Shown here: positions 7,932 to 24,473 of the stretch, piece by piece
How positions within the stretch are numbered: position 1 is the first letter of the stretch
How the letters are laid out: each line of letters opens with the position of its first letter
From: Candidatus Woesearchaeota archaeon
GTDB lineage: Archaea > Nanobdellota > Nanobdellia > SCGC-AAA011-G17 > GW2011-AR17
DNA: 25,678 nt
Reading direction: 5' to 3'
Assembly: GCA_043818535.1 (NCBI GenBank)
Contig: JBDRFS010000042.1
Location: forward strand, 1-25,678
Notes under the pieces: model-generated
The model's database searches: none
Seen by the model: the letters and a program-made list of their open reading frames with translations, nothing else
Told to the model about the DNA's origin: nothing
Translations under genes and position numbers: made by a program

Positions 7932-7932
7932 G

Positions 7933-9774: not shown

Positions 9775-9892
9775 TCTAAGTAACTGCCAAACTTTCATGG
9801 AAGAGGCATATCTGACTTTATCTTCTTTACTGGCACCTGGCGCATCTAAGTTAGAAGAATAATCCGTTCTAAGAAGAAATAAATTTTAGGAG

Positions 9893-10588
9893 TTAAATCA
9901 GGCCTTGCTTTTCCAAGTAAGAGAATCCTTCTTTCCTTAGATGCCCAATATCATATAGCGTATGGGAGTCGCTGTTTACATAAATCCTTTCTGCAGCAGA
10001 TAGTAATAAAGGTAATTTTTCAAGGTCGGTTTTTCCATAAAAAAGATTTGCACAGTTCAATTCTGGAGGTATTGAAAAACTATTGGCAGCTTCTATTACT
10101 TGGCCTATATCTAAATGTCCAGAAAAAGAGCTTGCACAGAGATGTCCTAAGCAGTCAATCTTAGAATTGTATTTTTCCAAAGCCCGCAAATAAGCCTCAG
10201 TTATTTTTTCAGGGTTGCCCTGATAAACTCCCCTATGAGCTGATAAAATAATAAAATCTTTGCCTTTGCTATAAGCTTCAAAATCCACTTCCCCATCTTC
10301 ATCAAGGAGGTCTGCTTCAACCCCAAAGATAACTTTAACATCATTGTGGATGTTCTTCCATCTTTTGGTATTTGAACCGCTTGTTTTCTTTGGGATTCTT
10401 TTTGATTCTAAATGGGATATGGAGTGGTCAGTAATTGCAAGTTCCGTTAAGCCAACTTTTCCAGCCTGAACTACAAGTTCATCAATTGAGTTTGCACCAT
10501 CCGAAAACGTAAACGTATGCGAGTGGTAATCGCCTTGAAGGTTAATTATTTCCATTTTAAAGGAAATCAAAAGTGGGTTTTTAAACAT
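9893..10588 (-). CDS. PHP-domain (histidinol-phosphatase-like) metal-dependent phosphoesterase
   Basis: GDYHSHTFTFSDGANSIDELV...AITDHS is a PHP motif I/II pattern, with DSH near the C-terminus. The true start may be M12 (ATG at 10553-10555, MEIINLQGDYHSH), because a TATA-like gctatataat at about 10598-10610 leaves ATG 10586-10588 too close. Confidence 0.78.
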   Translation of the reverse strand: MFKNPLLISFKMEIINLQGDYHSHTFTFSDGANSIDELVVQAGKVGLTELAITDHSISHLESKRIPKKTSGSNTKRWKNIHNDVKVIFGVEADLLDEDGEVDFEAYSKGKDFIILSAHRGVYQGNPEKITEAYLRALEKYNSKIDCLGHLCASSFSGHLDIGQVIEAANSFSIPPELNCANLFYGKTDLEKLPLLLSAAERIYVNSDSHTLYDIGHLRKEGFSYLEKQGLI

Positions 10589-10699
10589 TGCTTACCTAAA
10601 CTCTTTATTATATAGCTCGAAACAATCTAAGTGATGTTTCACCAATTGACTTCCCACCCCTATAGGAAAAGGCAAGGCGGCTGCTAAAAAAGAAAAAAA

Positions 10700-11638
10700 T
10701 TAAAATTTAGGGTCAATGCCCTTAGATTTCTGGTATTCTTCAGTTGTTATTACCTTGTCAGACCAAATCTCTTTTACAACCAAGCCTTTTTGTTTACCAT
10801 CTTCTTCGGAAGAGTCTATTGCCCAATGGTAATGCCCATCATCCCGAAGAAGGTTTGAGTTAAGGTTCACTATCCTGAAAACACTTGGCAAGTTATCCAA
10901 TAAACCACAAATATTGTCAGGTGTGACTTGCGGTACTTCCCTCAATAATGAAGAATGCCTGCCCATTAAGTCCGAATAGGATTCTATTACTCCCTTGCCT
11001 GCTCCCTCAACTTCAGGAGTAACTCTCCAGTCAACTTGCGGACGTTTCCGCAGGCCTCTTACCACCATTTTCATTCTTGACAAAACAGTTGTCTCGCAAG
11101 CCATGGTAGTTGCAACCGGATTGAAATGTGCCCTCTCACCTTTTGCAAGCTCGTCAACCATATATGCAAAGCCAACCAAGCCTTCCCCAAGGTTTTCCTT
11201 CTCGACATTTTCCATTATGCCGTCTATTGTCCAGTTAGGCATAATTTTTTTACTCGCGACAGTTACCGGGTCTACAACAGGTGATATTGTAACCAGATCC
11301 TCTTCAGGAAAATAAACATCAGTCGGATTAATTGCATTAGGCTTCCCTTGTTTTAGGCCAAATACTGGATGTGTATAGATGTCGTGAAGCTTTTGTATAG
11401 CGCCAGTAACTGTTGTTGTATATTTATCCTGTAATGTCCTTACATGCAGGAAATATTGTGTCAGTTCTTTAGTTTCAGGGTAATAACCTTCAACAGGATA
11501 ATTGCCCAGCGGAAAACCTGCGTCTTTCAATGCCTGCTCTGCAACAGGAAGCATTTCTGTCTCAAATGCTTTCATATACCTTCGCACTGTAGCATCTACA
11601 GCTTGGAAATAATCAAAATTTTCTATTATTTTTACCAT
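10700..11638 (-). CDS. hypothetical protein, no family recognised
   Basis: 312-aa ORF with ordinary globular composition. Only a weak antisense ORF competes with it. Confidence 0.7.
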   Translation of the reverse strand: MVKIIENFDYFQAVDATVRRYMKAFETEMLPVAEQALKDAGFPLGNYPVEGYYPETKELTQYFLHVRTLQDKYTTTVTGAIQKLHDIYTHPVFGLKQGKPNAINPTDVYFPEEDLVTISPVVDPVTVASKKIMPNWTIDGIMENVEKENLGEGLVGFAYMVDELAKGERAHFNPVATTMACETTVLSRMKMVVRGLRKRPQVDWRVTPEVEGAGKGVIESYSDLMGRHSSLLREVPQVTPDNICGLLDNLPSVFRIVNLNSNLLRDDGHYHWAIDSSEEDGKQKGLVVKEIWSDKVITTEEYQKSKGIDPKF

Positions 11639-11901: not shown

Positions 11902-12042
11902 ATGAAACATCAAACAAGTATAACCATAAATGAAGAAGTAATGTTAAAGGTTAAAGAGAAACTAAGAGATTGTTCTTTTAGGAACCAGTCTCATTTGTTT
12001 GAATTTGCAGTAAGAAAACTTCTAGAGGGAGATGAAAAATGA
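11902..12042 (+). CDS. ribbon-helix-helix (CopG/MetJ-like) DNA-binding protein, 46 aa, below the ORF-track cut-off
   Basis: MKHQTSITINEEVMLKVKEKLRDCSFRNQSHLFEFAVRKLLEGDEK shows a beta-strand (TSITIN), helix, RNxS turn and second helix. Its TGA (12040-12042) overlaps the next ATG (12039-12041) as ATGA. Confidence 0.6.
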   Translation: MKHQTSITINEEVMLKVKEKLRDCSFRNQSHLFEFAVRKLLEGDEK

Positions 12043-13427
12043 AACTCCTAGTGATAAATCCGCCAAATGAACCTTTCAGCGAAAGAAGTCTCCTCATAGA
12101 ACCTATTGATGTCTTAGGGGTTGCTACTTATGCAAAATCTATAGGCAACGATGTAAAATTGGTGGATATGGATGTTAAACAACAAACTCCAGAATCACTT
12201 GAAGAGACTTTAAAGGATTTTAGACCTTTCCTCACAGTAATCCCTTTTGATTATCATATTCCCTTACATACTTCTAAGGCAGTAGATGGTATTAATAGAA
12301 TTAGCAGCTTAGCCAAAGAGTATGGATCAAAGGTAGCAGTTGCTGGAAAAACTTCAAAGCACTACCCGGATTTATTCTTAAATGGAGGTGCAGATGTTGT
12401 AATTAATGGTGAAATTGAACTTACATTGAGTGATTTAGTCCACTTAAGTTTGTGGAACCCTTCTGAACTAATGAAGATACAAGGAATAACATATGCAAAT
12501 AATGGAGAGACCATATCCACTAAACCAAGAAGAACAAGAATAAACCTTGATTCTCTCCCAATTCCTGAAAGGGAATTAGTTGATTTGTCTGATTATATTG
12601 ATGTAAGAACCATACTAACCAGCAGAGGCTGTATGGGGAGATGTAGTTTTTGTCCTACACCTAATTACTGGGGCAATTGGAGAGCTAGAAGTCCTCGAAA
12701 TGTAGTAGATGAGATTGAAGAGTTAGTTACTAAATCTGGTGCAAAAAAAATTCTTTTCTTAGATGATAATGCAACTGTAAATAAAGATAGGATGAAACAG
12801 ATTTCAAGAGGCATTATGGATCGTGGAATTGATGTTACTTTAGGCTGTTTAGGGACAATTTCAGCTTATGATAGAGAAACTATAGGACTCATGCAGGTTG
12901 CTGGATTTAGATGGATCCATTATGGTGCAGAATCTGGAAATTCCGCAATCTTAAAAGCCAATGGAAAGAATATTACTCCTGAACAGATTAAAAAAGCAGT
13001 TAAAGAAACAAAAGATGCAGGTCTTAGGGTTAGGACTAGTTGGATTTTTGATCTGCCAGGCACAAACGAAGATACTTTACAGGAAACAATAGATTTAATT
13101 CTTGAGACGGAACCTCATGAAATTCGGGCCCATTATCTTGCTTTACGTGCTGGAACAGATATGTATAAACAAGCAGCAGAGGGACAAGTATTACCTTCAC
13201 AATATATTCACACTAAAGAACCAATGCTGAGCTTATCTGGATATAATCAACATAAAATAACAGAGAAAGTAAGAGAACTAAAAGAAGAATTGCAAAACAA
13301 AGGTTATTTGGTTATAGATGATGTAACAGCGTGGAGAGATATAGATAAATTGAGGGACCAAGATCCTCAGTTGAGGTTTATTTCCTTTTGTCCCTCAAAA
13401 TATGGTTTAAACTGGGAGCAAAAATGA
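12039..13427 (+). CDS. B12-binding-domain radical SAM protein (class B type)
   Basis: 462 aa. N-terminal Rossmann-like MKLLVINPP...VKLVDMD...VAVAGK, as in cobalamin-binding domains. SRGCMGRCSFC supplies C198/C202/C205 (12630-12653). Confidence 0.88.
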   Translation: MKLLVINPPNEPFSERSLLIEPIDVLGVATYAKSIGNDVKLVDMDVKQQTPESLEETLKDFRPFLTVIPFDYHIPLHTSKAVDGINRISSLAKEYGSKVAVAGKTSKHYPDLFLNGGADVVINGEIELTLSDLVHLSLWNPSELMKIQGITYANNGETISTKPRRTRINLDSLPIPERELVDLSDYIDVRTILTSRGCMGRCSFCPTPNYWGNWRARSPRNVVDEIEELVTKSGAKKILFLDDNATVNKDRMKQISRGIMDRGIDVTLGCLGTISAYDRETIGLMQVAGFRWIHYGAESGNSAILKANGKNITPEQIKKAVKETKDAGLRVRTSWIFDLPGTNEDTLQETIDLILETEPHEIRAHYLALRAGTDMYKQAAEGQVLPSQYIHTKEPMLSLSGYNQHKITEKVRELKEELQNKGYLVIDDVTAWRDIDKLRDQDPQLRFISFCPSKYGLNWEQK

Positions 13428-14110
13428 GGAAAACAAAAGAAATTCTGGAAGAAGAAAATACCAATAGCTTTTTGTTAGGAGTAACTGGCTCAATTGGGTG
13501 TGGAAAAACACATGTTTGTCATACATTAATAGATATAGCCTCAAATCAAGGACTTTCATTGTCTTATGTAAACTTAGATACTATTAGAAGACAAATTTTG
13601 GGTACAGAATCACGTTATGCTCATCTAAGATTACAATTATCAGATCATTTTGGAGAGAGAATAACAAAGTTAGATGGATCCATTGATGGTAAAGAACTAG
13701 GTCAAATAATCTTTTATGATTCTGATGCAATGAATTATTTTAGAAATTTAATATCTCCTGCTATTGATCAAGAGCTTGAGATTGAAACTCAAGATAAAAA
13801 AGGCTTGGTTTTAGTTGAATGGGCTCTTTTAGTTGAAGATGGTTTGCTTCCTTTGGTAAAAGGTGATGTCTTAGTCACAACATGTAGTTATGATAAACAA
13901 ATAGCTAGATTGATGGGTGGCGATCTACCCTTGAATCAAATATTAAAGAGAAGGAGTAATCAATTAACTAACAGTGAAAAAATAGAAAAAATTAGAGCAT
14001 ATCAACAAGATACTGGGGGGGGGAAGCTTTATGTTTTTGATACAACTGAAAATCCTTCAAAAGGCCAATACAGGGCTCTATTAGAAAAAATAATCCAAGG
14101 TGTAAAATGA
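13424..14110 (+). CDS. dephospho-CoA kinase (CoaE)-like P-loop kinase
   Basis: Walker A LLGVTGSIGCGKTHV. VEWALLVE and CSYDKQIARLMGG parallel the CoaE PLL.E and Q..RL..R blocks. Start is placed at ATG 13424, which forms ATGA with the upstream stop and has GGGAG 9 nt upstream. The track start at 13388 would overlap by 40 nt. Confidence 0.75.
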   Translation: MRKTKEILEEENTNSFLLGVTGSIGCGKTHVCHTLIDIASNQGLSLSYVNLDTIRRQILGTESRYAHLRLQLSDHFGERITKLDGSIDGKELGQIIFYDSDAMNYFRNLISPAIDQELEIETQDKKGLVLVEWALLVEDGLLPLVKGDVLVTTCSYDKQIARLMGGDLPLNQILKRRSNQLTNSEKIEKIRAYQQDTGGGKLYVFDTTENPSKGQYRALLEKIIQGVK

Positions 14111-15096
14111 AAAAAGAAAAAGTTGTAAAGGATTTTGAACCAGAATTAGAGAATTATTCCTTTTGCTTATTTAGATTGCCTGAAGAAGGTGGAAGAGTAA
14201 TTTGGGAAATCACAAATAGTTGTAATTACTCATGTGGTTATTGTATCTTTAGTGCAGAAAAGGGAAGAATTCCAGATGAACTTACAAATGAAGAAGTATT
14301 TGAAGTTCTAGAAGGATTAAAGGAAAGGGAATTTAGCCACTTAAAATTAACTGGTGGAGAACCGTTTATTAGAAAAGATTTCATGGACATATTAAAACAA
14401 TCTTCGAACTTAGGATTTATTGTGGATGTTTCAACTAACGCTTCCTTAATAACTGCTGAAAAAGCGAGGACAATAAAAGACTTAGGTGTACAAATGGTCC
14501 ATGTTAGCATTGATGGTCATAACCAAGAGTTACATGAATTAGCACGTGGAAAAAACACATATCAAAGGACAATTAGAGGTCTTCAACACCTAATCGATAA
14601 TGATGTGAACGTGAGAGTTGGTACAGTAATTTTCAAAGCAAATGAAGATTATTTAAGTAAGATGGTAGACTCTGCAGCGGCTCTTGGTGCAAATGAGATC
14701 ATATTTTCTTTTATGGAACCAGTAGGAAGAATGAAGGATGATTATTCTATGATATCATCTAGGCCTATTCTTGAAGTAAAAAGTAAAATTGAACAATTAG
14801 CTGAACAATATGTTGGACAAATTCAAGTTAAGCATAGTTTCACAGAAGATGCAAAACATAATGAACAAGGTACCTGTCCAGCAGTTAGGAAATTCCTTTA
14901 TATTGATAATTTAGGAACAGTATCTCCTTGTACTTGGGTAGTAGAACAAAATCCAAAATATAGATCTAATTTAACTGTGAAAGAGGCAAGTTTTGATGAA
15001 GTTATGAATTCAAAACCGATTAGATCATACTTATCTTACATTGAAAGATTAAATAATGAAGAGATTAAAGGTTGTCCTGTGAGAAGAAGATGTTAA
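14107..15096 (+). CDS. radical SAM protein with C-terminal twitch/SPASM-like Cys cluster
   Basis: 329 aa. NSCNYSCGYC supplies C39/C43/C46 (14221-14244). The C-terminus CPAVRKFLYIDNLGTVSPC fits Cx12Gx4C, and the protein ends GCPVRRRC. The start forms ATGA with the kinase stop. Confidence 0.85.
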   Translation: MKKEKVVKDFEPELENYSFCLFRLPEEGGRVIWEITNSCNYSCGYCIFSAEKGRIPDELTNEEVFEVLEGLKEREFSHLKLTGGEPFIRKDFMDILKQSSNLGFIVDVSTNASLITAEKARTIKDLGVQMVHVSIDGHNQELHELARGKNTYQRTIRGLQHLIDNDVNVRVGTVIFKANEDYLSKMVDSAAALGANEIIFSFMEPVGRMKDDYSMISSRPILEVKSKIEQLAEQYVGQIQVKHSFTEDAKHNEQGTCPAVRKFLYIDNLGTVSPCTWVVEQNPKYRSNLTVKEASFDEVMNSKPIRSYLSYIERLNNEEIKGCPVRRRC

Positions 15097-16124
15097 CAGA
15101 ACAGAAATGGGATATAGAAGATTCACTTAGTGATAAATCTATTACTCAAGACATTGAAAAGCTGTTTGATAAAGACTTAGAATACAATTTACAACCTAAT
15201 AGGAAATTTAGCAGATTTTCTCCAATGTATTCTTTTGCTACTGAGAACTTATCAGGCTACTTTCCTGTATTGCCAATGCAAGGGAAGAAAATCTTAACTG
15301 TGAGTGGTTCTGGTGATCATATTATAAATGCTTATATGTTTGGTGCAACAGAAGTTGATGCATTTGATGTAAATATTTTGTCAGCATTTATCTCCGAACT
15401 AAAATTACAGGCGCTAAAAGAATTATCTTTTAAAGAATTTAAAGGGTTCTTTTTAAGAGAAAGCCCAAACAGTTCAACATATAATCTTAATGCCCTAGAT
15501 TTTGAGGTCTATAAACAGTTAAAGGGAGGACTATCTCATTTCTGCTCCTTATTCTTTGATAAAGCCTATGAATACTTTGATTTTGATGGTTCTCGTTTAA
15601 GAGAATCTTACCTTTTCAATAACAAATATGATTTAAATCAGAAGAAGATCCAGAATAATCCTTACTTACAGTCTAAGCATAACTTTGAGGAGGTAAAAAG
15701 ACTTAGCAGAAAGAATCATAATAGGCAGATAATAAGTGAGGTTCAGAATTTAGGAGAATTACTTGGAAAAAAACAGTCGTTTGATGTTATACTTCTCTCA
15801 AACATAGTCGATTATGCTAAAATTATGTTTCCAGAATCTAAAGAATACTTGGGAGCTTTTTGCGATTCTGTTATAGAACCGTTAAAGATGCATTTGACAG
15901 AAGAAGGGATTATCTGTGCGGCTTATATTTATGTTGATGATAATAACCCCTATTCAAAATATAGAACTGAAGTACATAATCCATTATCAAAGTATAGAAG
16001 TGCTATTGATGATCCTGAAAAAAGGAGGCTTGTCTTTCAGGGTAGTGGGATGAAATATTATGAGATAACATTCGAAAGTGTCATCCCTGAAGAAAAAGAT
16101 GCAGTTGTATTACTGCAAAAATAA
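15090..16124 (+). CDS. DUF3419 / BtaA-like SAM-dependent enzyme
   Basis: KKILTVSGSGDHIINAYMFGATEVDAFDVNILSAFISELKLQALKELSFKEFKGFF parallels the DUF3419 pattern (I.S.G.n...A.D.N..Q..L.eLK...l..L.y.ef). FDVILLSNIVDY occurs later. ATG 15090 (ATGTTAA overlap with the upstream stop) is preferred to the TTG at 15072. Confidence 0.72.
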   Translation: MLTEQKWDIEDSLSDKSITQDIEKLFDKDLEYNLQPNRKFSRFSPMYSFATENLSGYFPVLPMQGKKILTVSGSGDHIINAYMFGATEVDAFDVNILSAFISELKLQALKELSFKEFKGFFLRESPNSSTYNLNALDFEVYKQLKGGLSHFCSLFFDKAYEYFDFDGSRLRESYLFNNKYDLNQKKIQNNPYLQSKHNFEEVKRLSRKNHNRQIISEVQNLGELLGKKQSFDVILLSNIVDYAKIMFPESKEYLGAFCDSVIEPLKMHLTEEGIICAAYIYVDDNNPYSKYRTEVHNPLSKYRSAIDDPEKRRLVFQGSGMKYYEITFESVIPEEKDAVVLLQK

Positions 16125-16139
16125 TAGGAGGAAAATAAA

Positions 16140-16655
16140 ATGGAACCATTGAAAAAACTAAAAGCAACATATGGAAGTGAGGATATAAACAATCTCGTAG
16201 ATTTTACAAGACGAGCACCCATAGAACTTCCGGAAAGCAAGACGTACCGTTTCGAGAAAGTAGGCTCTGTAATACACATATATGGAGAAGATTCTGGAAT
16301 AAACCAGTATAACATTGCGGATTTAAGTGAGGGAATGTCCTTAAAGGGAATAAAAACAACACCTCAAGCAATAGAAATAAATCTTTCTTTTGAAGGAATA
16401 GAGAAAATACTATTGCATACTAAGCCTTATAAATGGACAAAAGTTGGAAGAAGGAAAACTTCCAGTGTAAGTTCTTTAGTAAGTAGTATATCTAGCTGCT
16501 TGTCTGGAGAAAGTCGTTCTTCTGGTGAATCTGCCGGGATTAATGGAGAAAGCAGAGGATCAGGCTCCAGTGGAGAATCTAGCAGTTCTTCTGGAGAGAG
16601 CAGACGTCCATCTTCCAGTGGAGAATCTAGTGGTTCTTCTGGAGAATCTCGTTAG
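16140..16655 (+). CDS. 171-aa protein with a globular N-terminal part and a Ser/Gly/Glu-rich tail carrying seven (S/N)GES units
   Basis: The strongest Shine-Dalgarno site in the operon (AGGAGG at 16126-16131, 8 nt before the ATG). The tail reads SGESRSSGESAGINGESRGSGSSGESSSSSGESRRPSSSGESSGSSGESR and ends the protein. No signal peptide. Confidence 0.75.
   Translation: MEPLKKLKATYGSEDINNLVDFTRRAPIELPESKTYRFEKVGSVIHIYGEDSGINQYNIADLSEGMSLKGIKTTPQAIEINLSFEGIEKILLHTKPYKWTKVGRRKTSSVSSLVSSISSCLSGESRSSGESAGINGESRGSGSSGESSSSSGESRRPSSSGESSGSSGESR
16503..16652 (+). repeat. degenerate in-frame tandem repeats encoding the (S/N)GES units
   Basis: gga gaa/gag agt/agc/tct recurs seven times. The last two units lie in a near-duplicate of about 40 nt (tccagtggagaatctagNNgttcttctggaga at 16567-16598 and 16612-16643). 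Confidence 0.8.
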
Positions 16656-16674
16656 CATGAGGAATTAAATTAAG

Positions 16675-17679
16675 ATGTTGAATGAACAAGAGTTACAAAG
16701 ATTACATACCAATCAAAGATTGTTGGTTCTAGAACTTCAACGTAGAGATATCAATGTTAAAGTGATTGATAGGGGATTAGAATTGCTTGAGGCATTTTAT
16801 AACAGGCATAAGGAATTTATTTTAGATAGGGATTCTTCTATAAACCCTTACCCTGCTTCAGTTATTAGTGGGAATAAGTGTCTTGCTAAAAATTTATTAA
16901 AAGAAGCTGGAATAAGTGTTGTAAAGGGGGAACAGTTTTATTCTGACCAACTAGACGATGCGCTTATTTATTCCCAAGAAATAGGTTTTCCAATTGTAGT
17001 AAAACCAAATTTTGGATCTCATGGAGATGGTGTTCATATGGATTTGGAGAATCTATGCCAAGTAAAAGAAGCATTTGATAAGGTTATAAAGTTAATAGGA
17101 ACTTCAAGAGCTTTCCTTGTAGAAGAACAGTTTGAAGGCAAGGAATATAGAGTATTTATTACTGAGAATGGAGATTATGCAGTACTTCATAGAGACCCTG
17201 CTCATGTTATAGGAGATGGCAAGAAAACAATAGAACAACTAGCAAAAGAGGAATCTTTTAAAAGGATGAACCCTAGGACAACTTGTCTTTGTCCAATCAG
17301 ATTAGATGATGTTGTGAATGGATATTTGGCAAGAAGTGGAAAAGACTTAAACTTTATCCCTAAAGAAGATGAAAAAATTTATCTCAGGCATAATTCTAAT
17401 GTGGCGGCAGGAGCGACATGTGAAGATTATACAGATAAAGTACATCCTTCAGTGATAGAAATTTCTAAAAAAGCATTAGAAGTTTTCCATGGATTGCCTT
17501 ATGCAGGAATGGATTTCCTTAGCAAAGATATATCTGTTGAACAGGATAAAAATAGCTATAGGGTTCTAGAAGTGAACTCAATTCCTGGAATTCATATGCA
17601 TATGAGGCCTGGAGAAGGCAAACCTAGAAATGTTGCACAATATCTTGTTGATATGATTTTCCCGGAGACAAGAACATGA
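16675..17679 (+). CDS. ATP-grasp ligase of the cyanophycin-synthetase G-domain type, with no Mur-ligase domain
   Basis: 334 aa. FPIVVKPNFGSHGDGV, PAHVIGDGKKTIEQL and LEVNSIPGIHMHMRPGEGKPRNVAQYLVDMIFP closely follow the CphA pattern EVNaaPG.rMHl.P.eG.pRnV....vd.LFP (recalled motif). GAGGA lies 11 nt upstream of the start. Confidence 0.82.
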   Translation: MLNEQELQRLHTNQRLLVLELQRRDINVKVIDRGLELLEAFYNRHKEFILDRDSSINPYPASVISGNKCLAKNLLKEAGISVVKGEQFYSDQLDDALIYSQEIGFPIVVKPNFGSHGDGVHMDLENLCQVKEAFDKVIKLIGTSRAFLVEEQFEGKEYRVFITENGDYAVLHRDPAHVIGDGKKTIEQLAKEESFKRMNPRTTCLCPIRLDDVVNGYLARSGKDLNFIPKEDEKIYLRHNSNVAAGATCEDYTDKVHPSVIEISKKALEVFHGLPYAGMDFLSKDISVEQDKNSYRVLEVNSIPGIHMHMRPGEGKPRNVAQYLVDMIFPETRT

Positions 17680-18374
17680 AACAATATAGCTTATCCGAAG
17701 GCTCAAAAAGTTATCATGATGAAGCCTATATATATGAACACTTTAGTCAAGTAGAGGATATTCCTGGAAATATTCTACGTTTCTTGGAACCCTTAGTTAA
17801 AAGTAAGGATGTTTTAGACCTTGGTTGTGGAACTGGCAAGTATTTGGTTTCTTTAGCACCATTAGCTAAAAGTTATTGCGGGTTGGATATTTCATCTGAT
17901 CAATTGGGGATTGCAAAATCTAAAGTTAATAATATTTGTAATGTAAATTTTTTATGTTCATCTGCAGAATCAATTAATCTCCCTAATGAAAGCATTGATA
18001 CTATAATTTCTACTTGGGTGTTAAGTACTATTCTAGATGAAAAAAGAAGAGTAAAGGCTCTCAAAGAAGCAGAAAGAGTTCTTAGAACAAATGGAAATAT
18101 TTACTTAGTAGAGAATGACATAGGTGGAGAATTTGAAATGATTAGGGGAAGATATCCTGATATAACAAGAACTAAAACATATAATGGTTGGGTAGAAGCC
18201 CAAGGTTTTAAGATTGCAAAACGTTTAAACACTTATTTTGAGTTTGAATCATTAGAAGAAGCAAAAAAAGTTATAACTTCTATATGGGGCAAAGAAGCAG
18301 CTACAAAAGTCAAGGGTAAAAGAATATATCATAAGATACTGATATACCACAAGAAAAAGAGCGACATAGAGTAA
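17676..18374 (+). CDS. class I SAM-dependent methyltransferase
   Basis: 232 aa. Motif I is VLDLGCGTGKY, with post-I LDIS and DTIISTWVL. The start forms ATGA with the ATP-grasp stop. Confidence 0.85.
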   Translation: MKQYSLSEGSKSYHDEAYIYEHFSQVEDIPGNILRFLEPLVKSKDVLDLGCGTGKYLVSLAPLAKSYCGLDISSDQLGIAKSKVNNICNVNFLCSSAESINLPNESIDTIISTWVLSTILDEKRRVKALKEAERVLRTNGNIYLVENDIGGEFEMIRGRYPDITRTKTYNGWVEAQGFKIAKRLNTYFEFESLEEAKKVITSIWGKEAATKVKGKRIYHKILIYHKKKSDIE

Positions 18375-18656: not shown

Positions 18657-18672
18657 GAAAGATTTATATATG
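18657..18672 (+). promoter_or_regulatory. putative TATA box of the transposase gene
   Basis: gaaagaTTTATATAtg is centred about 30 nt upstream of ATG 18697. ATG 18670 lies inside this box and is therefore an unlikely start. Confidence 0.45.
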
Positions 18673-18696
18673 ATTAGTGTATATCTATACACTAGA

Positions 18697-20193
18697 ATGG
18701 CTTTTATTCGTAAAATCAAAAGGGGAAAATATACTTACTTAGCTGAAGTTGAGAATAAATGGATCAAAGGAAGAGTAGTGCAAAAACATATTCGTTATGT
18801 TGGTAGGCAGTTGAATGGAAAGATAATAAAATCTGGCTCAATAGGAAATATTGAAGTTACGAAAGTAATTACTTGGGCACCCTTACTTGTTTTGAATACT
18901 TTAGCTAAACAGATTCATTTGTCTGAGATTCTTGGCGATTATGGTGATTATTTACTGAGTCTTGCTTATGCTCATTGTCTGGATCCTAAAAGTGTCAATA
19001 AGATGGAAGACTGGTTTAGTAGGACAGATCTTCATAGCATGTTGAACATCAATGAAGTGTCTGAAAAGGAGTTGTATTTTGCTATGGATTCAATAACTGA
19101 AAAAAATTCTGATACAATCCAGAAAAAGATTTTCAATTCAGTGAAATATGTTCATAACTTAAAACCAAAAGGATATTTTTTTGATGTTACTAATGCTTAC
19201 TTTTATGGAACCGAATGCTGTATTAGCAAGAAAGGGCATAACAAAGAAGGCAAAAATAAACCGCAAGTCCAAATTGGTCTTGCAGTAACTGAAGAAGAAG
19301 GAATACCCATATTTCATAAGACTTTTGAAGGGAATATTCATGATTCAAGAATTCTAAAAGACATGATGGTCATGTTTCATGATTTAAACATCAAAGATGT
19401 TTTTATTGTGTGGGATAGAGGCATAACTTCAGAAGAGAATATTACCGACGCTAAACAAGTAGGATTTGAGGTGATTTGTGGTTTAGCAATAAAACAAAAT
19501 GTTAAAAAACAGGTTGATCAAATAAAGGAAAACGAATCTTTTCTAAAACTCAAAAATAGAGTAAGATTAAAGAAGACTGTATTATATTGTCTAAAACAAA
19601 AATACAAATATGGTGATATTAACGGACACATGATTGTCTGTTTCAATGAAGAAACTGCAAGACTAAACAAAGAAAAAAGAATTGATAATATTTACAAAGC
19701 AAAAGAACTTCTAAAGAAAAATAAACCAATATCAGAAGGCATAAAAAAATATTTCAAAGAAAATGAGATCAATGAAGAAGTATTACTTGAAGCTCAAAAA
19801 TATGATGGATATTCAAGTTTATTCTCAACAAAAGATTTAGAGATTGAAAAGATTGTGAAACATTACTTTGAAAAGGATAAAGTAGAAAAAGCATTCAGAA
19901 GCTTAAAAAGTGTTTTGGGACTAAGACCGATAAAACACTGGCTCGAAGAACGAGTAAAATCACATATATTCATCTGCTACTTATCATATTTGTTAATCAC
20001 ATTATTAGAGCATAAACTAAAATCAAAAGATATTTCAGCCATTGAAGCACTGGACAAATTAAGCACAGCATACAAAGTTCACATTAAAAACAAAAAGCTC
20101 AAAGAAGAATTTACTAAAACAGTAACATTAACAAAGGAACAAGAAACAATCATGAAGGCTGTAGACAAAAAGATTCTAAAACCTAGTGTATAA
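18697..20193 (+). CDS. IS1634-family DDE transposase
   Basis: The N-terminus MAFIRKIKRGKYTYLAEVENKWIKGRVVQKHIRYVGR is typical of this family. DDE-region blocks are FFDVTNAYFYG, FIVWDRGITSEENI and YFEKDKVEKAFRSLKSVLGLRPIKHW. The track ORF starts at 18670. Confidence 0.88.
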   Translation: MAFIRKIKRGKYTYLAEVENKWIKGRVVQKHIRYVGRQLNGKIIKSGSIGNIEVTKVITWAPLLVLNTLAKQIHLSEILGDYGDYLLSLAYAHCLDPKSVNKMEDWFSRTDLHSMLNINEVSEKELYFAMDSITEKNSDTIQKKIFNSVKYVHNLKPKGYFFDVTNAYFYGTECCISKKGHNKEGKNKPQVQIGLAVTEEEGIPIFHKTFEGNIHDSRILKDMMVMFHDLNIKDVFIVWDRGITSEENITDAKQVGFEVICGLAIKQNVKKQVDQIKENESFLKLKNRVRLKKTVLYCLKQKYKYGDINGHMIVCFNEETARLNKEKRIDNIYKAKELLKKNKPISEGIKKYFKENEINEEVLLEAQKYDGYSSLFSTKDLEIEKIVKHYFEKDKVEKAFRSLKSVLGLRPIKHWLEERVKSHIFICYLSYLLITLLEHKLKSKDISAIEALDKLSTAYKVHIKNKKLKEEFTKTVTLTKEQETIMKAVDKKILKPSV

Positions 20194-20748: not shown

Positions 20749-21210
20749 TTACGATCTCCCCAACCCCCCAGCCACATCACTGGCTTCTTCAAGAAAATCC
20801 CCTATCTCTTCCTTAAAAAAAGGATATTCCCGCGCTCCAGAAATCCTGTGGCTAGAATACTCCAAACCCTCATAAAAGAACCTGAAAGCAGGAACGCCAT
20901 AAAACTTGTACTGCTCCATCAGCCAATAGTCATCACGCGTCACCTTAAGCTCAACAACCTTCATCCTCCCATAATACTCCTTTGACAGATGCTCAACAAC
21001 AGGCTCAACCTCCCTGCAGTAATGGCAGTTTTCAGAAGAGAAGTCCACCATCACTGGAAGCTCTGCCTCCAGCACTTCCTCATCAAAAGAGCCAGCAGTG
21101 ATATGCACAACCCTTGAGGGACCTGGAATTTCCTCCATGGCATCCTTCTTCTCACAGGCAACAACCAGAAGCGCACAAAGGCAGTATTTGGCAACTCTTT
21201 TCATAGACAT
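20749..21210 (-). CDS. thioredoxin-fold protein with a lipoprotein-type signal
   Basis: 153 aa. The N-terminus MSMKRVAKYCLCALLVVAC is lipobox-like. It has the CxxC motif NCHYC and a thioredoxin-like YGVPAFRFF. Confidence 0.8.
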   Translation of the reverse strand: MSMKRVAKYCLCALLVVACEKKDAMEEIPGPSRVVHITAGSFDEEVLEAELPVMVDFSSENCHYCREVEPVVEHLSKEYYGRMKVVELKVTRDDYWLMEQYKFYGVPAFRFFYEGLEYSSHRISGAREYPFFKEEIGDFLEEASDVAGGLGRS

Positions 21211-21260
21211 AAAACTTATGCCTCTCAGATTAATAAAGATTTCCCCACCTCCCAGAAAGC

Positions 21261-21275
21261 GAAAAGTATATAATC
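21261..21275 (+). promoter_or_regulatory. putative TATA box for the surface-protein gene
   Basis: gaaaaGTATATAAtcc is centred about 45 nt upstream of the TTG start at 21315. A GGGGGA Shine-Dalgarno site lies at 21303-21308. Confidence 0.4.
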
Positions 21276-21314
21276 CTCATAATAATTAACTTCTCTAGGA
21301 AAGGGGGAATAATA

Positions 21315-23009
21315 TTGAAAAAGCTACTGCTCTTACCAGCAATAATGATAATAATGGCAGCCTTTGCAGTTGCCACTCTTGAAGATTCAGATTACGTCCT
21401 CTCAAACTCAGATGACTGGAGGGATGTGTACTCTTCTGTGCAGTATGCCACGCTCTCAGGCAAGGACTTCGGCTTCCTGGTAAGCGAGAAGCATGCATTA
21501 TCTGTAGTAAATACCATAAGCAGAAACCTCAATATAGGGCTGGTAAGCTCTGACACCTCGCCTTTCTTCATGGGATACAAGTCCTTTCTGGAGTCAAAAG
21601 GCTTCTCCACAGTAAGCGAAGATGTCTTAAGGAATGTAAACCTTGAGCTTGCAGAAAGGCTTCCGGACATAACAAATTTCATAATAATGGACGATTCTTA
21701 TGGCTATAATGCCATTGCAGCAGCGCCATATGCAGCTACCAAAAAGTCCTATGTTATATTTGCCAACAGGGAGAATATAGGCGCTGTTGAGGACTTTCTG
21801 GACTCTAAGCCCGCAATAGGTGAGCTCCTTATCTTCGGGCATGTGGACAGGGAAGTGAAGGAGCAGCTGTCAAGGTTCAATCCTGAGATAATCAACAAGG
21901 AAGACAGGTTTGACAATAATGTGGAAATTGTGAAGAGGTACAGGGAGATAAGGCCGGCAAAGCAAATTGTGATAACAAACGGCGAGTTCATAGAGAAGGA
22001 AATCATGATGGGGGCAGAGCCTGTACTATTTATAGGCAGGGAAAACGTCCCTGACCAGATAAAGAACTACATACAGTCAACTGATATCGAGGTTGCCGTG
22101 CTTGTGGGTAATGAGCTGATAAACACAGCAACAAACATAAGGAGAACAGTAGGGATAAGCACTTTCGTCAAGTTTGCACAAGGATCCAGGGGCGGGGGAG
22201 GATCAATCTCCCAGGTTGAAGCACTGGACATGTTTTACCTACCGACATACACCCTCAATGTGGCTATTGAGTCGGTGAAGTACAACAAGGCAATGAACAC
22301 GCTTGAAGTCACTTACAGGAACAATGCTGATGTCGCTTCTTACCTGAAGGGCACAATAACTCTTGAGGACAAGGATTCAGGGGAGGAGCAGAGAGTAGGC
22401 GATATTGATTCTGTGTTCATAGAGGGAGGAAGCCTGAAGACAATAGCTTACTCAGGGATTAACCTTACTGGCGAGTCATTCCTTGCCAGGGTTTTTACAA
22501 TCTACGGCGAATCAAGGAATTCCCTGGAATTTGTCCTGCAGGCCGAGCTGGATGTTGATGTCGTGAACATATATGACAACTGCGAGATTGAGCTTGAAAA
22601 GGCCCTCTTCCACAAGAGGAAACAGCAGTTTTTGATCACAGTGGCAAACATAGGGCCTGAGGCCTGCTATGTGCAGCTTGAGCTGACAGATGTTGTCATT
22701 GCTGACGAGAGGGTAACTCTTGGGACAGTGGACCCTGTGAAGATTGAAATAGGGAAGAAGTCCGACATAGCAATTGACGCAATGCTTACTGATTCTGACT
22801 TGGAAAAGAACAATTACATTAACCTTATTGCATATTATGGCCAGAGGGAATCAAGCCTGATAAAGGTTCTCAAAGCAAAGCTCCAGCTTGAAATTAAAAG
22901 CGTTGACATAGTGTACTATTCTGTATGGGTTGGAGTAATCCTTTTAATAATAGTGCTGCTCTTCCTTCTTTTCAGGAGAAGGAAAGAGGATGAGGAAGAA
23001 GAGGACTAG
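21315..23009 (+). CDS. large cell-surface protein with an N-terminal signal and a C-terminal TM anchor
   Basis: 564 aa with a TTG start. Signal sequence MKKLLLLPAIMIIMAAFAVA. Three N-terminal segments resemble cell-wall-binding-repeat-2 units (SNSDDWRDVYSSVQYATL, MDDSYGYNAIAAAPYAA, VITNGEFIEKEIMMGAEP). The C-terminus has a TM segment VWVGVILLIIVLLFLLF followed by RRRKEDEEEED. Confidence 0.8.
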   Translation: MKKLLLLPAIMIIMAAFAVATLEDSDYVLSNSDDWRDVYSSVQYATLSGKDFGFLVSEKHALSVVNTISRNLNIGLVSSDTSPFFMGYKSFLESKGFSTVSEDVLRNVNLELAERLPDITNFIIMDDSYGYNAIAAAPYAATKKSYVIFANRENIGAVEDFLDSKPAIGELLIFGHVDREVKEQLSRFNPEIINKEDRFDNNVEIVKRYREIRPAKQIVITNGEFIEKEIMMGAEPVLFIGRENVPDQIKNYIQSTDIEVAVLVGNELINTATNIRRTVGISTFVKFAQGSRGGGGSISQVEALDMFYLPTYTLNVAIESVKYNKAMNTLEVTYRNNADVASYLKGTITLEDKDSGEEQRVGDIDSVFIEGGSLKTIAYSGINLTGESFLARVFTIYGESRNSLEFVLQAELDVDVVNIYDNCEIELEKALFHKRKQQFLITVANIGPEACYVQLELTDVVIADERVTLGTVDPVKIEIGKKSDIAIDAMLTDSDLEKNNYINLIAYYGQRESSLIKVLKAKLQLEIKSVDIVYYSVWVGVILLIIVLLFLLFRRRKEDEEEED

Positions 23010-23010
23010 G

Positions 23011-23019
23011 TTTTTCTTT
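23011..23019 (+). terminator. oligo-T tract after the surface-protein gene
   Basis: tttttcttt begins 2 nt after the TAG at 23007-23009. Confidence 0.4.
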
Positions 23020-23049
23020 AATTTATTAGTTTCTAAACTATACCGATAA

Positions 23050-23062
23050 CATTAAAAATATC
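23050..23062 (+). promoter_or_regulatory. putative TATA box for the signal peptidase gene, apparently leaderless
   Basis: cATTAAAAATAtc is centred about 26 nt upstream of ATG 23082. Confidence 0.4.
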
Positions 23063-23081
23063 TAAAATTGTTTAAGGCTTG

Positions 23082-23711: not shown

Positions 23712-23794
23712 TACTGGTTGCCCAAACCTCTTCTGCTGCCAAAGACTGTCCATCATCCAAAGACGGCAATCTATGCAAAAATGCGGCTGCTGAC

Positions 23795-24265: not shown

Positions 24266-24326
24266 ATGAGTAAAGATGCAGGAAGAGTTTTAATAACTTT
24301 CGATTGTGCGTGTGCAGGTTTTGGTC

Positions 24327-24377
24327 TTGATAAAGCATAGGCAGCCTGCGCTTTTGGATTTGCTGGCGTGGAAGTCC
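24327..24377 (+). repeat. dispersed intergenic repeat, copy d
   Basis: TTGATAAAGCATAgGCAG head, then 26 of 33 positions match copy c. Confidence 0.7.
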
Positions 24378-24473
24378 TTGCATGGCTTTTGCCAGAATAT
24401 GATTTGCTAGGATGAAATCCTTTATGCTATTCTTCTCAGAAAATCAGTCCAGCCAGAAGTGCTCTCGTGGTGA

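Follow-up and report, generated by a model that had tools for sequence, protein, structure and literature searches.

A Glu-Ser-Arg Repeat Protein as the Putative Substrate of a Six-Enzyme Cassette in DPANN Archaea and Bacteria

What is a protein that ends in an array of Gly-Glu-Ser units doing inside an operon of modifying enzymes? The question is raised by an open reading frame (ORF) on the forward strand at 16140..16655 of the window, the whole 25,678-nt stretch of DNA that was analyzed. Its product, here called the tail protein, is encoded within a cassette with the gene order B12-radical SAM enzyme (B12-rSAM), CoaE-like kinase, radical SAM/SPASM enzyme (rSAM/SPASM), DUF3419 enzyme, tail protein, ATP-grasp, and class I methyltransferase. 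The preliminary description of the locus proposed a candidate substrate or scaffold, and genomic context supports that proposal: the six modification enzymes of the cassette almost certainly have the tail protein as their dedicated target or carrier. Literature searches, Pfam, and NCBIfam returned no description of the tail protein or the cassette, which is apparently undescribed so far.

Architecture of the Tail Protein

The translated ORF is a 171-aa protein composed of a ~100-aa domain, a Ser-rich linker, and a 50-aa tail. Residues 1-100 (16140..16439, + strand) are predicted to form a folded α/β N-domain with an AF2 pLDDT of ~94. Residues 101-121 (16440..16502, + strand) are a basic, Ser-rich linker (KVGRRKTSSVSSLVSSISSCL) whose residues 106-120 read KTSSVSSLVSSISSC, and pLDDT falls below 50 from residue 103 onward. 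Residues 122-171 and the stop codon (16503..16655, + strand) make up the disordered tail, in which motif conservation across 57 cassette-linked proteins marks the proposed modification sites. The tail contains SGESR (122), SGESA (128), NGESR (135), SGESS (144), SGESR (151), SGESS (160), and SGESR (167) directly followed by the stop. These seven G-E-S units comprise four GESR, two GESS, and one GESA, and all seven Glu residues of the tail stand in a G-E-S context. The preliminary description had named these parts from the letters alone, and both the translation and the disorder prediction bear it out.

The array is not a product of composition. In 100,000 shuffles that preserved the composition of the 50-aa tail, seven GES were never reached (the maximum was five), and four ESR were reached only 4 times. 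Codons vary between the repeats (TCT, AGT, and AGC for Ser; CGT and AGA for Arg), as expected from the degenerate DNA repeats first reported; that account holds only in part, since one old duplication of 48 bp is still recognizable to Tandem Repeats Finder at 16544-16646 (2.1 copies, 81% match). Comparable repeats are absent from every other ORF of the window. Two further early readings are confirmed: the gene has the best ribosome-binding site of the operon, with the Shine-Dalgarno sequence TAGGAGG 8 nt upstream of its ATG as the strongest match, and it lies directly upstream of the ATP-grasp gene, with 19 nt between its stop and the ATP-grasp start at 16675. A disordered tail behind a folded domain, the strongest ribosome-binding site, and varied Ser and Arg codons are substrate-like properties.

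The tail protein has no match in Pfam, NCBIfam (E<=0.01), or PADLOC. A Foldseek search of its AF2 model against the PDB gave no match at E<0.001, with the disordered tail kept in the query, which may have weakened the search. As judged by these comparisons, the N-domain is a previously undescribed family. The suggestion that it resembles an NHLP/Nif11-type leader finds no counterpart in Pfam or NCBIfam at E<=0.01 or among PDB folds.

The ESR Motif, Its Scaffolds, and the Cassette

An exhaustive profile search of 1.84 billion representatives returned 77 matches at E<=1e-3, and 5 of these match the tail only. Two outcomes had been named beforehand as counting against a substrate or scaffold: N-domain homologues that generally lack the tail or occur outside such clusters, and a tail that turns out to be a generic low-complexity linker. 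The 13 close homologues and most of the 77 profile matches instead keep a GESR-bearing tail, and those with readable context are encoded in the same cassette or adjoin an ATP-grasp gene. Unrelated proteins match the tail in only those 5 cases; in the 4 that were inspected, the repeat units are longer and form perfect, recent tandem arrays, and no cassette is evident.

The unit conserved in the 57 cassette-linked proteins reads [G>S]-E-S-R, not the (S/N)GES first described. ESR occurs 281 times, ES followed by a residue other than Arg 66 times, and E[not S]R twice. The fixed pair is thus the adjacent E-S (347 versus 2), which displaces the earlier pairing of Glu with the Ser two residues before it. 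The E-S pair is near-invariant and Arg is replaced in ~19% of units. Sequence logos of 162 archaeal and 97 bacterial sites show the same [G/S]-E-S-R with flanks rich in Ser and Gly. Repeat number was expected to vary while spacing is kept; the number does vary, from 1 to 13 ESR copies per protein, and the E-S-R adjacency is retained, but the spacers range from 0 to 15 aa and their length is not kept.

The part of the protein that carries these units differs among lineages. In DPANN archaea, the repeats are carried on the N-domain. In Clostridia, N-terminal repeats (MSESRGGESR...) are followed by a helix-rich part, while in Bacilli a helical part is followed by a C-terminal GESR...GESRW. One locus (L028) has ESR repeats at both protein ends, another (L010) has yet another N-terminal part in its tail-position protein, and a third (L052) encodes a 488-aa protein at this position that is without an ESR array and ends in GASGE at the stop. 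High-GC bacteria encode a single-ESR protein (...SESRGGxGSGER-stop) followed by B12-rSAM, CoaE, SPASM, and DUF3419 genes, which in sequence is the layout of an ordinary one-core RiPP. The N-domain HMM matches none of the bacterial tail-position proteins, so an N-domain needed as leader, as originally envisaged, is not upheld: bacterial cassettes use other helix-rich parts, some with N-terminal ESR repeats. A helix motif, [DN]I..L[IV][DE], is common to the archaeal and Bacilli-type scaffolds but was spotted post hoc, and the 76% probability that hhalign gives for these two scaffolds is inflated by their ESR tails. Many tails end in GESR, GESRW, or GE[ED]R; the C-terminus is not conserved in bacterial loci L025-L027 and L029, although the ESR units are kept. 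Across the proteins compared, the ESR unit emerges as the sole feature that outlasts replacement of the remaining scaffold.

Synteny was assessed in 42 loci whose ATP-grasp is >=45% identical to that of the window and whose flanking sequence is readable. All 42 encode a protein with ESR repeats or with a Gly-Glu motif near its C-terminus, and in 36 the gene for this protein ends within 30 nt of the ATP-grasp start. In most of the 42, the five remaining enzymes are also present, and their order hardly changes. Gene order thus demonstrates that the tail protein and the cassette enzymes are inherited together. The cassette is seen in DPANN archaea, in gut Clostridia and Bacilli (as MAGs), and in high-GC bacteria. 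Three distant loci have only the ATP-grasp beside the tail protein, which carries a single GESA or GESR (L006, L032) or five ESR (L007); three of the ATP-grasp-only loci lie on short or partial contigs, so the remaining enzymes could be encoded elsewhere, and a search of the ATP-grasp-only loci for further conserved partners found none. In single-motif relatives of this group, Ser is relaxed to Gly (GEGR), and Glu is the best conserved residue of the tail.

Immediately upstream of the cassette, a conserved 46-aa ORF (MKHQTSITINEE...FEFAVRKLLEGDEK; 11902..12042, + strand) overlaps the B12-rSAM start with its end. It has no Pfam match, also lies directly 5′ of the B12-rSAM gene in L001, L010, and L011, and to the eye looks like a candidate ribbon-helix-helix regulator. 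When the window and five bacterial loci were scanned for riboswitches, the sole find was a SAM riboswitch 5′ of a metK fragment beside the L028 cassette, which is too little to infer regulation. Downstream, an IS1634-family transposase (18670..20193, + strand; NF033559, 3.8e-84) lies outside the pathway at the edge of a low-GC island, with 30% GC at the transposase, 33.9% in the cassette, and ~45% in the flanks. An integrase adjoins the cassette in a Clostridial MAG. The transposase, the integrase, and the low-GC island suggest horizontal spread between domains of life and a selectable function.

PADLOC gave no specific defence match in the window, with generic similarity for the radical SAM enzymes and methyltransferase and nothing for the tail protein, ATP-grasp, or DUF3419 enzyme. 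A viperin-like nucleotide pathway, considered because of PADLOC pVip matches and the kinase fusions described below, was rejected: the similarity is that of a generic radical SAM core, and AhbD, StsB, and others score far better.

Enzymes of the Cassette

Against curated NCBIfam models, the cassette enzymes score far below cut-offs, with the exception of the generic dephospho-CoA kinase equivalog; their specific activities are therefore not transferable. No RiPP recognition element (RRE) was found in them with Pfam or NCBIfam.

The ATP-grasp (16675..17679, + strand) is a stand-alone ligase of 334 aa that resembles the G domain of cyanophycin synthetase; homologues among the 120 matches listed are all 318-351 aa. 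Its NCBIfam matches are cyanophycin synthetase (NF010623, 2.9e-69), GshAB (1.2e-53), Ngg (2.4e-40), RimK (6e-12), and LysX_arch (1.7e-10). The NF010623 match is confined to positions 208-475 of the 871-position profile, and its 234 bits fall short of the 877-bit cut-off. The best PDB match is CphA1 (1.7e-44), and the alignment with CphA, ~35% identical over ~260 residues, takes in the stretch near CphA residues 320-420. Homologues form at least 355 clusters at E<=1e-40, and the ATP-grasp alignment was used to scan metagenomes. Orthologues that are 48-75% identical adjoin the tail protein in 42 of 42 readable loci, and by this measure the ATP-grasp is the universal partner of the tail protein. 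Cyanophycin synthesis was rejected as its role, for the 334-aa enzyme has neither the N domain nor the Mur-ligase-like M domain. A graspetide macrocyclase of the MdnB/MdnC type was likewise rejected: the best matches are cyanophycin synthetase, GshAB, and Ngg, the RimK-type match is weak (6e-12), and the matches listed include no microviridin-type model.

The B12-rSAM (12039..13427, + strand) is a 462-aa B12-binding radical SAM enzyme (Pfam Radical_SAM, 4.9e-26; B12-binding, 1.4e-5) with a CxxxCxxC motif at residues 198-205. Its best NCBIfam matches, namely BchE, HpnJ, PhpK, and the MCR Gln C-methyltransferase, all lie far below cut-offs. Orthologues occur in ~35 loci at 38-64% identity.

The CoaE-like P-loop kinase (13424..14110, + strand; Pfam CoaE, PF01121, 1.2e-21) belongs to the dephospho-CoA-kinase family, whose members phosphorylate the ribose 3′-OH of dephospho-CoA. 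Its likely start is the ATG at 13424, which overlaps the preceding stop; the mechanical ORF start is a TTG at 13388. It exceeds the TIGR00152 cut-off (68.4 versus 65.55 bits), retains an intact P-loop (GSIGCGKT), and matches dephospho-CoA kinases in the PDB at ~1e-11. CoaE is fused to the rSAM/SPASM enzyme in L027, L028, L045, and L046. Given the cassette context and these radical SAM fusions, its substrate is likely other than dephospho-CoA.

The rSAM/SPASM (14107..15096, + strand) is a 329-aa radical SAM enzyme whose C-terminus forms a short domain of the SPASM/twitch type (Pfam Radical_SAM, 8.4e-28; SPASM, 2.1e-4). It contains Cys-39, -43, and -46 and only four C-terminal cysteines (Cys-257, -275, -323, and -329). 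Its NCBIfam matches, including AhbD, StsB, NirJ, and MftC, are all below cut-off, and its PDB matches are SkfB, GDGT-MAS, MoaA, and PqqE. It is fused to DUF3419 in L052 and L053.

The DUF3419 enzyme (15090..16124, + strand) is a 344-aa SAM-dependent transferase of the BtaA family that scores 32.3 bits against a PF11899 cut-off of 28.2. All 16 homologues match PF11899 (best E, 7.1e-16), and precomputed annotation likewise assigns PF11899 to every one. Its AF2 model (pLDDT 87) returns only class I methyltransferases in Foldseek, a fold that cannot separate methyl from aminocarboxypropyl transfer. In the BtaA reaction, a hydroxyl receives the 3-amino-3-carboxypropyl group of SAM (PMC10685587). 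In the literature searched, BtaA is the only activity linked to DUF3419, and DUF3419 queries otherwise gave betaine-lipid or unrelated papers.

The final enzyme is a 232-aa class I SAM methyltransferase (17676..18374, + strand; Pfam Methyltransf_11/25, ~1e-19) that overlaps the ATP-grasp stop by 4 nt. Phosphoethanolamine N-methyltransferases are among its best PDB matches (2e-11), and orthologues come after the ATP-grasp in most loci. In L017, it is replaced by a Metallophos::methyltransferase fusion. The pairwise fusions (CoaE-rSAM/SPASM, rSAM-DUF3419, and Metallophos-methyltransferase) support coupling among the enzymes.

Possible Roles of the ESR Array

On balance, the tail protein is probably a ribosomally made, RiPP-like, multi-site substrate in which each [G/S]-E-S-R unit serves as one modification site. 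The ATP-grasp would phosphorylate the γ-carboxylate of the motif Glu and join it to an amine, either a free amino acid or another. The CoaE-like kinase, rSAM/SPASM, and DUF3419 enzyme may jointly act on the adjacent Ser through O-phosphorylation and/or BtaA-like 3-amino-3-carboxypropyl O-alkylation, combined with radical chemistry. The class I methyltransferase would then methylate the product, possibly on nitrogen like BtaB, while the B12-rSAM would methylate or, less likely, adenosylate Arg or Glu at an unactivated carbon. The link between Glu and the ATP-grasp is supported by the distant ATP-grasp-only loci, two of three with a single motif, and by the related single-motif tails, in which Glu is best conserved. 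The C-terminal α-carboxylate, as in RimK, TTL, CphA, and pearlins, ranks below the Glu side chain as the ATP-grasp site because several bacterial loci keep ESR units with unrelated C-termini.

As in RiPP systems, a ribosomally translated precursor gene is clustered with modifying enzymes, here with a strong ribosome-binding site, an overlapping-gene operon, and synteny in 42 of 42 loci; leader proteolysis and export have no counterpart, as neither a protease nor a transporter recurs within or next to the cassette across lineages. More broadly, no protease, hydrolase, or exporter is conserved across lineages in or beside more than 40 cassettes, and the likeliest end product would therefore be the modified protein itself, staying in the cell. 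Housekeeping proteases may alternatively release a small ESR-derived molecule. Counting against the substrate reading, its chemical steps are predicted from family membership, and L052 is without an ESR array. In addition, the ATP-grasp is most closely related to the G domain of CphA, the GshB portion of GshF, and Ngg, all of which activate α-carboxylates rather than side chains.

The first alternative, tentative and rather unlikely, is that the tail protein acts as a reusable carrier or scaffold like LysW/ArgW or the pearlins. LysW/ArgW and pearlins are small proteins with a flexible Glu tail that is loaded by an ATP-dependent ligase and then served by a kinase and tailoring enzymes. With LysW, whose C-terminus reads ...EDWGE, loading by the ATP-grasp LysX comes before the kinase acts. 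Here, the ATP-grasp would load an amine or amino acid on Glu or on the C-terminus, the five other enzymes would tailor the tethered molecule, and a hydrolase encoded elsewhere would free the product, leaving Ser and Arg as recognition handles. A small folded domain with a flexible tail bearing a Gly-Glu motif, an ATP-grasp that is the only universal partner and whose relatives ligate free amino acids, and a kinase within the cassette, as in the LysW/LysX pathway, all fit this arrangement, as do the replaceable Arg and the SGE-stop that ends the L052 tail. However, the cassette encodes neither a LysW zinc-ribbon nor homologues of LysZ/Y/J/K, similarity of the ATP-grasp to LysX is weak (1.7e-10 versus 2.9e-69 for CphA), and a release hydrolase is not conserved. 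The near-absolute Ser beside Glu in full-cassette systems, replaced by Gly in the ATP-grasp-only relatives, also fits a chemical target better than a handle. Carrier proteins with as many as 13 units arrayed at one end or the other are, to our knowledge, not known, which argues against a carrier. The scaffold-peptide logic of PEARLs and pearlins is described elsewhere (bioRxiv 10.64898/2026.05.21.726688); in contrast to these systems and LysW/ArgW, the present cassette has no LysW fold, LysZ/Y/J/K, or PEARL enzyme, and its motif occurs in as many as 13 copies and can be N-terminal.

A second alternative, decidedly unlikely, is a multi-core precursor of a small molecule or cofactor, comparable to PQQ, mycofactocin, or multi-core fungal RiPPs, in which the ESR tripeptide would be converted and excised, with the repeats multiplying the yield of a product useful to genome-reduced symbionts. 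Copy number is free from 1 to 13 with the flanking scaffold irrelevant, the SPASM enzyme is PqqE/MftC-like at the family level, and the cassette is carried by, among others, DPANN archaea and MAGs of gut Clostridia and Bacilli. Excision, however, finds no conserved peptidase in or beside the more than 40 cassettes, and every scaffold retains a sizeable folded or helix-rich part that a disposable precursor would not need. It is highly improbable that the protein is no substrate at all but rather a partner of the enzymes in docking, assembly, or regulation, or else a disordered protein unrelated to them, with an ESR tail of low complexity: such S/G/E/R tails are common, one duplication is detectable, and the profile search found a few unrelated proteins with GESR-containing tandem repeats, but the same tripeptide holds the same operon position in archaea and several bacterial groups on scaffolds unmatched by the N-domain profile, composition as the cause is ruled out by the shuffle test, most units are too diverse in their codons to stem from recent slippage, and the unrelated matches inspected are perfect, longer tandem repeats with no cassette evident.

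The favored multi-site substrate shares features with several known systems. In graspetides such as microviridin and plesiocin, the precursor is encoded beside an ATP-grasp, its cores combine Ser/Thr with Asp/Glu and are often repeated, and a methyltransferase is sometimes present. The present locus likewise joins a precursor-type gene to an ATP-grasp, repeats a core with Ser and Glu, and includes a methyltransferase. Unlike in graspetides, its ATP-grasp belongs to the cyanophycin-synthetase G-domain/GshF/Ngg group rather than to MdnB/MdnC, its Glu and Ser are adjacent and would give a very small ring, its fixed partners are two radical SAM enzymes, a CoaE-like kinase, and DUF3419, and the place of a "leader" is taken by a folded domain of 100 aa or by a helix-rich part. 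CphA1/CphA2 provide the best sequence and structure match for the ATP-grasp, and both enzymes would act on an Arg-containing acidic peptide; unlike CphA, the ATP-grasp is without N and M domains, cannot make the Asp-Arg polymer, and pairs with a gene-encoded tail protein.

The His-Xaa-Ser system encodes HxsA, which contains many copies of a three-residue motif, beside the radical SAM enzymes HxsB/HxsC. The tail protein resembles HxsA as a repeated three-residue-motif protein beside two radical SAM enzymes, but the motif and enzymes differ, the Hxs system has no ATP-grasp, kinase, or DUF3419, and no Hxs model is among the NCBIfam matches listed. Diphthamide biosynthesis proceeds through aminocarboxypropyl transfer, N-methylation, and amidation, and a carboxylate-acting, ATP-dependent ligase would complete that sequence here, a likeness of logic only. 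The same holds for BtaA/BtaB, in which a DUF3419 enzyme is paired with a methyltransferase (PMC10685587), as it is here with a class I methyltransferase. In contrast to both, the putative acceptor here is a protein Ser rather than diacylglycerol or His. In sinefungin biosynthesis, the B12-radical SAM enzyme SinC acts on Arg before the kinase SinF phosphorylates a ribose hydroxyl, and SinC takes free L-Arg and rejects its peptide SinA (bioRxiv 10.64898/2026.05.21.726688). The B12-rSAM gene here always precedes the kinase-family gene and the motif contains Arg, which is an analogy only.

Taken together, the proposal of an undescribed archaeal and bacterial pathway, in which six enzymes build a new side-chain structure on the Glu-Ser of [G/S]-E-S-R as a protein-borne prosthetic group on a disordered tail or as a peptide-derived metabolite or cofactor, comes close to an even call but falls slightly short of it. 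Because the ESR motif is short, repeated, and portable between scaffolds, it may also serve as a tagging tool with a ready mass-spectrometry readout. If the proposal is true, the tail protein would give DUF3419/BtaA-type enzymes and CphA-type ATP-grasps their first substrate that is a protein or peptide. First functions would follow for DUF3419 outside betaine lipids, for the stand-alone cyanophycin-synthetase-type ATP-grasp, and for the rSAM-fused CoaE-like kinase. The cassette would then represent new modification chemistry on a three-residue motif, carried by an unnoticed seven-gene module of hundreds of sequence clusters (at least 355 for the ATP-grasp) that extends from DPANN archaea to Bacillota of the human and animal gut.

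The tail protein and its relatives

The tail protein is the 171-aa translation product of 16140-16655 (+), with a C-terminal tail that reads SGESRSSGESAGINGESRGSGSSGESSSSSGESRRPSSSGESSGSSGESR-stop, and is 100% identical to an NCBI 'hypothetical protein' from a Candidatus Woesearchaeota MAG. Translation bears out the seven GES units of the preliminary description. All seven tail Glu residues lie within G-E-S, and none of 100,000 composition-preserving tail shuffles reached seven (best shuffle, five); the observed count of four Glu-Ser-Arg (ESR) units was equalled in 4 of 100,000. The repeats use three alternating Ser codons (TCT, AGT, AGC) and two alternating Arg codons (CGT, AGA), so it is at the protein level that the periodicity is kept. 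The repeats were initially described as degenerate in the DNA, which holds for their codons, but one old 48-bp duplication (16544-16646, 81% match) is still detected by Tandem Repeats Finder. No similar repeats were found in other ORFs of the window. The gene is preceded by the operon's strongest Shine-Dalgarno match, as first noted: TAGGAGG, 8 nt before the ATG.

An AlphaFold2 model built with 13 homologues agrees with the proposed division of the protein. Residues 1-100 form an alpha/beta domain (N-domain, pLDDT ~94), beyond which pLDDT is mostly below 50. A PDB fold search with this model returned zero matches at E<0.001, and the protein matches nothing in Pfam, NCBIfam, or PADLOC. Both membership among NHLP/Nif11 precursors and the suggestion that the N-domain is a leader of that type are dropped, as no profile matched.

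The 12 close homologues all combine an N-domain with a tail. Their tails carry 3-10 copies of G-E-S-R and usually end in GESR, GESRW, or GESRY; repeat number thus varies as anticipated, but the spacers are uneven (0-15 residues). Searched exhaustively with a profile, 1.84 billion representatives yielded 77 proteins at E<=1e-3, including the repeat-rich archaeal type, a type with N-domain, helical linker, and a single ...SGESRSGGxRxxG-stop, and a high-GC bacterial type ending in ...RRTSPWR...SESRGGxGSGER-stop. Only 5 of the 77 matched through the tail alone, and the four of these examined were unrelated to the tail protein, with longer units repeated perfectly in tandem, so the tail does not behave as a generic linker.

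The operon and its surroundings

The operon consists of genes that overlap or almost touch. It opens with a conserved 46-aa ORF, MKHQTSITINEEVMLKVKEKLRDCSFRNQSHLFEFAVRKLLEGDEK (11902-12042, +), whose end overlaps the start of the B12-binding radical SAM gene; it has no Pfam match, looks by eye like a ribbon-helix-helix regulator, and has a counterpart immediately upstream of the same gene in related loci L001, L010, and L011. The B12-binding radical SAM enzyme (B12-rSAM; 12039-13427, +) is encoded second and a CoaE-like P-loop kinase (13424-14110, +) third, followed by a radical SAM enzyme with a short SPASM-type end, whose C-terminal part has only four Cys (14107-15096, +), and a DUF3419/BtaA-family SAM enzyme (15090-16124, +) directly before the tail-protein gene. 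That gene does sit directly upstream of the ATP-grasp gene, as described (16655 vs 16675). The 334-aa ATP-grasp (16675-17679, +) is followed by a class I methyltransferase (17676-18374, +), the last cassette gene.

The ATP-grasp matches cyanophycin synthetase at 2.9e-69 through the G-domain portion alone, and it lacks the N and M domains that membership would require. Further matches are the ATP-grasp halves of GshAB and N-acetylglutaminylglutamine synthetase; RimK is matched very weakly. The deposited NCBI version has 318 aa (95% of the 334-aa ORF), and its start probably lies too far downstream, because alignments with homologues already begin at residue 1 of the longer ORF. At a cut-off of E<=1e-40, the family has no fewer than 355 clusters. 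Members of the 120 clusters listed are free-standing, 318-351 aa long, and called 'hypothetical' or, by automatic assignment, 'cyanophycin synthetase'.

The cassette (11902-18374) has a GC content of 33.9%, against 45.4% in the left and 44.5% in the right flank, which marks it as an island. An IS1634-family transposase lies downstream (18670-20193, 30% GC), and the island was apparently acquired by horizontal transfer. In the Clostridial locus L014, the cassette is closely preceded by a phage-type integrase gene.

The flanking genes (24-11638 and 20749-25678) appear unrelated to the cassette. They encode a YgiQ-type radical SAM enzyme (2843-4390, -), a protein-L-isoaspartate O-methyltransferase (5478-6104, -), a fumarate-reductase/aspartate-oxidase-like flavoprotein (6140-7735, -), an amine-oxidase-like flavoprotein (8116-9774, +), a PHP-domain protein (9893-10588, -), thioredoxin (20749-21210, -), and an incomplete GT4 glycosyltransferase that crosses the window end (24653-25678, -). 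The sole RNA gene detected in the window is tRNA-Gly (CCC) (7861-7931, +), and three sizeable flank ORFs have no family match (4614-5471, +; 10700-11638, -; 21315-23009, +).

The cassette in other genomes

The full cassette with its tail protein occurs, in partly shuffled gene order, in MAGs labelled Woese-, Pace-, and Nanoarchaeota. The ATP-grasp of DPANN loci shares 67-75% identity with the window's; comparable values (67-68%) come from two contigs binned as 'uncultured Methanosarcinales' (L011 and L013), whose cassettes suggest either mis-binning or transfer. In L013, a long extension at the N-terminus brings the B12-rSAM ORF to 796 aa. When the ATP-grasp alignment was searched against GTDB with each species represented by one genome, all six enzymes turned up in unchanged order in MAGs of uncultured gut Clostridia, Bacilli, and 'Tenericutes', with ATP-grasps 48-56% identical to the window's; a metagenome scan added further loci.

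The bacterial proteins encoded between DUF3419 and ATP-grasp do not match the N-domain HMM, yet they carry ESR units on different scaffolds. The Clostridia scaffold begins with MSESRGGESRSYSSY...GESR, continues with a helix-rich part, and often ends in GRGE[ED]R, while the Bacilli scaffold has a helical part and then ...GESR...GESRW. Proteins of L028, L045, and L046 bear ESR arrays at both the N- and C-terminal ends, and the L010 tail protein has another, distinct N-terminal part. In L051, of the high-GC type (69% GC), the tail protein is followed by B12-rSAM, CoaE, SPASM, and DUF3419. In the distant loci L006, L007, and L032 (ATP-grasp 48-49% identical; L007 tail protein only ~27%), the ATP-grasp is the sole cassette enzyme seen beside the tail protein.

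The preliminary expectation that the protein stays within such clusters is upheld. Of the loci whose flanks could be read and whose ATP-grasp shares 45% or more identity with the window's, 42 of 42 encode it, and in 36 no more than 30 nt separate its end from the ATP-grasp start; many comparison loci come from MAGs with possibly wrong taxonomic labels, and some are duplicates of one contig. Where the ATP-grasp is 34% identical (two loci), the protein is absent. By this comparison, a link between tail protein and cassette is close to certain.

One lineage does not fit the substrate model neatly. In L052, from an uncultured bacterium (ACD_28-type record), the ATP-grasp is preceded by a 488-aa protein (6525-7991) with four internal ~90-aa repeats (Y-T-x-E-D-x-x-F-W-R...), a coiled coil, and a tail QQGSSSYRQQGYSRSGYGASGE-stop that ends ...GYSRSGYGASGE-stop, without an ESR array. 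In L028, a Bacilli MAG, a SAM riboswitch and terminator-like hairpin (4730-4846) precede a 260-aa ORF (4876-5658) that encodes the SAM synthetase N-terminal domain alone, directly upstream of the cassette. The riboswitch may reflect the heavy SAM demand of four SAM-using enzymes, or coincidence.

Proposed target residues, chemistry, and product

In logos built from 162 archaeal and 97 bacterial sites, the consensus is [G>S]-E-S-R; its flanks are rich in S and G, and no further position is fixed. The proposed (S/N)GES unit therefore describes the window's tail, but the wider core is the adjacent Glu-Ser pair, as shown by repeat-region counts (ESR, 281; ES[not R], 66, mostly N, S, or K; [not E]SR, 21; E[not S]R, 2). 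Arg is replaceable in about one fifth of units. Among single-motif relatives, to which the ATP-grasp-only loci L006 and L032 belong, Glu is constant, but some tails have Gly for Ser (GEGR) and some have Ala, His, or Ser for Arg; several bacterial tail proteins retain ESR units and have unrelated C-termini. From these patterns, we infer a pairing of residues with enzymes in which the ATP-grasp requires Glu and the additional enzymes require Ser and, to a lesser degree, Arg. The likeliest ATP-grasp site is the Glu side chain rather than the C-terminal carboxylate.

A helix motif, (Y/F)-x-S-x-x-D-I-x-x-L-(V/I)-(D/E) with core [DN]I..L[IV][DE], was noticed post hoc in the archaeal N-domain (residues ~13-25) and in 9 of 9 Bacilli-type scaffolds (alignment columns ~135-150), and could be an enzyme-docking helix. 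An hhalign comparison of the two scaffold types gave 76% probability, to which the ESR tails add.

Fusions join the CoaE-like kinase to rSAM/SPASM (~485-490 aa; L027, L028, L045, L046) and rSAM to DUF3419 (637 aa; L052/L053, 3867-5780), which suggests that kinase, SPASM, and DUF3419 enzymes work as a single unit. In L017 (11046-12437), a 464-aa calcineurin-like phosphoesterase-methyltransferase fusion replaces the plain methyltransferase, and L007 has a histidine phosphatase close by; phosphorylation may be transient.

BtaA attaches the SAM aminocarboxypropyl group to a hydroxyl, and the product is N-methylated by BtaB (PMC10685587). No other DUF3419-linked activity was found in the searched literature. 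Phosphoethanolamine N-methyltransferases are among the methyltransferase's best solved-structure matches, and the DUF3419 model (pLDDT 87) matches generic class I methyltransferase folds only. BtaA/BtaB-like O-alkylation and N-methylation of Ser is thus a lead rather than a result. In the sinefungin pathway, a B12-radical SAM enzyme adenosylates free Arg and a kinase phosphorylates the ribose (bioRxiv 10.64898/2026.05.21.726688). The invariable cassette pair of B12-rSAM then CoaE, together with the motif Arg, can be set beside this pathway as an analogy.

The best-supported reading, on evidence that is comparative throughout, is that the tail protein would be a multi-site substrate of a RiPP-like system. 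Graspetides and other radical-SAM RiPP clusters are most alike in working mode; the cassette's ATP-grasp is of a different type from that of graspetides. The foremost of three rivals casts the protein as a carrier of the LysW or pearlin kind, with a small molecule assembled while tethered to it; the window's system has neither LysW nor LysZ/Y/J/K and is not a LysW system. Next is a multi-core precursor from which a metabolite or cofactor is released. No conserved protease, hydrolase, or exporter was found across cassette loci, and every scaffold has a folded or helix-rich part, for which reasons a modified intracellular protein is favored as the end product. A non-substrate partner role for the tail protein ranks last.

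No curated model in Pfam, NCBIfam, or PADLOC names the tail protein or assigns a specific function to the cassette enzymes, and PADLOC gave no specific match to a defence system. Literature searches on the cassette or motif found nothing relevant, and DUF3419 alone led to betaine-lipid and other unrelated papers. For the proposed multi-site substrate and its enzymes, there is a substantial chance that the cassette harbors new chemistry.
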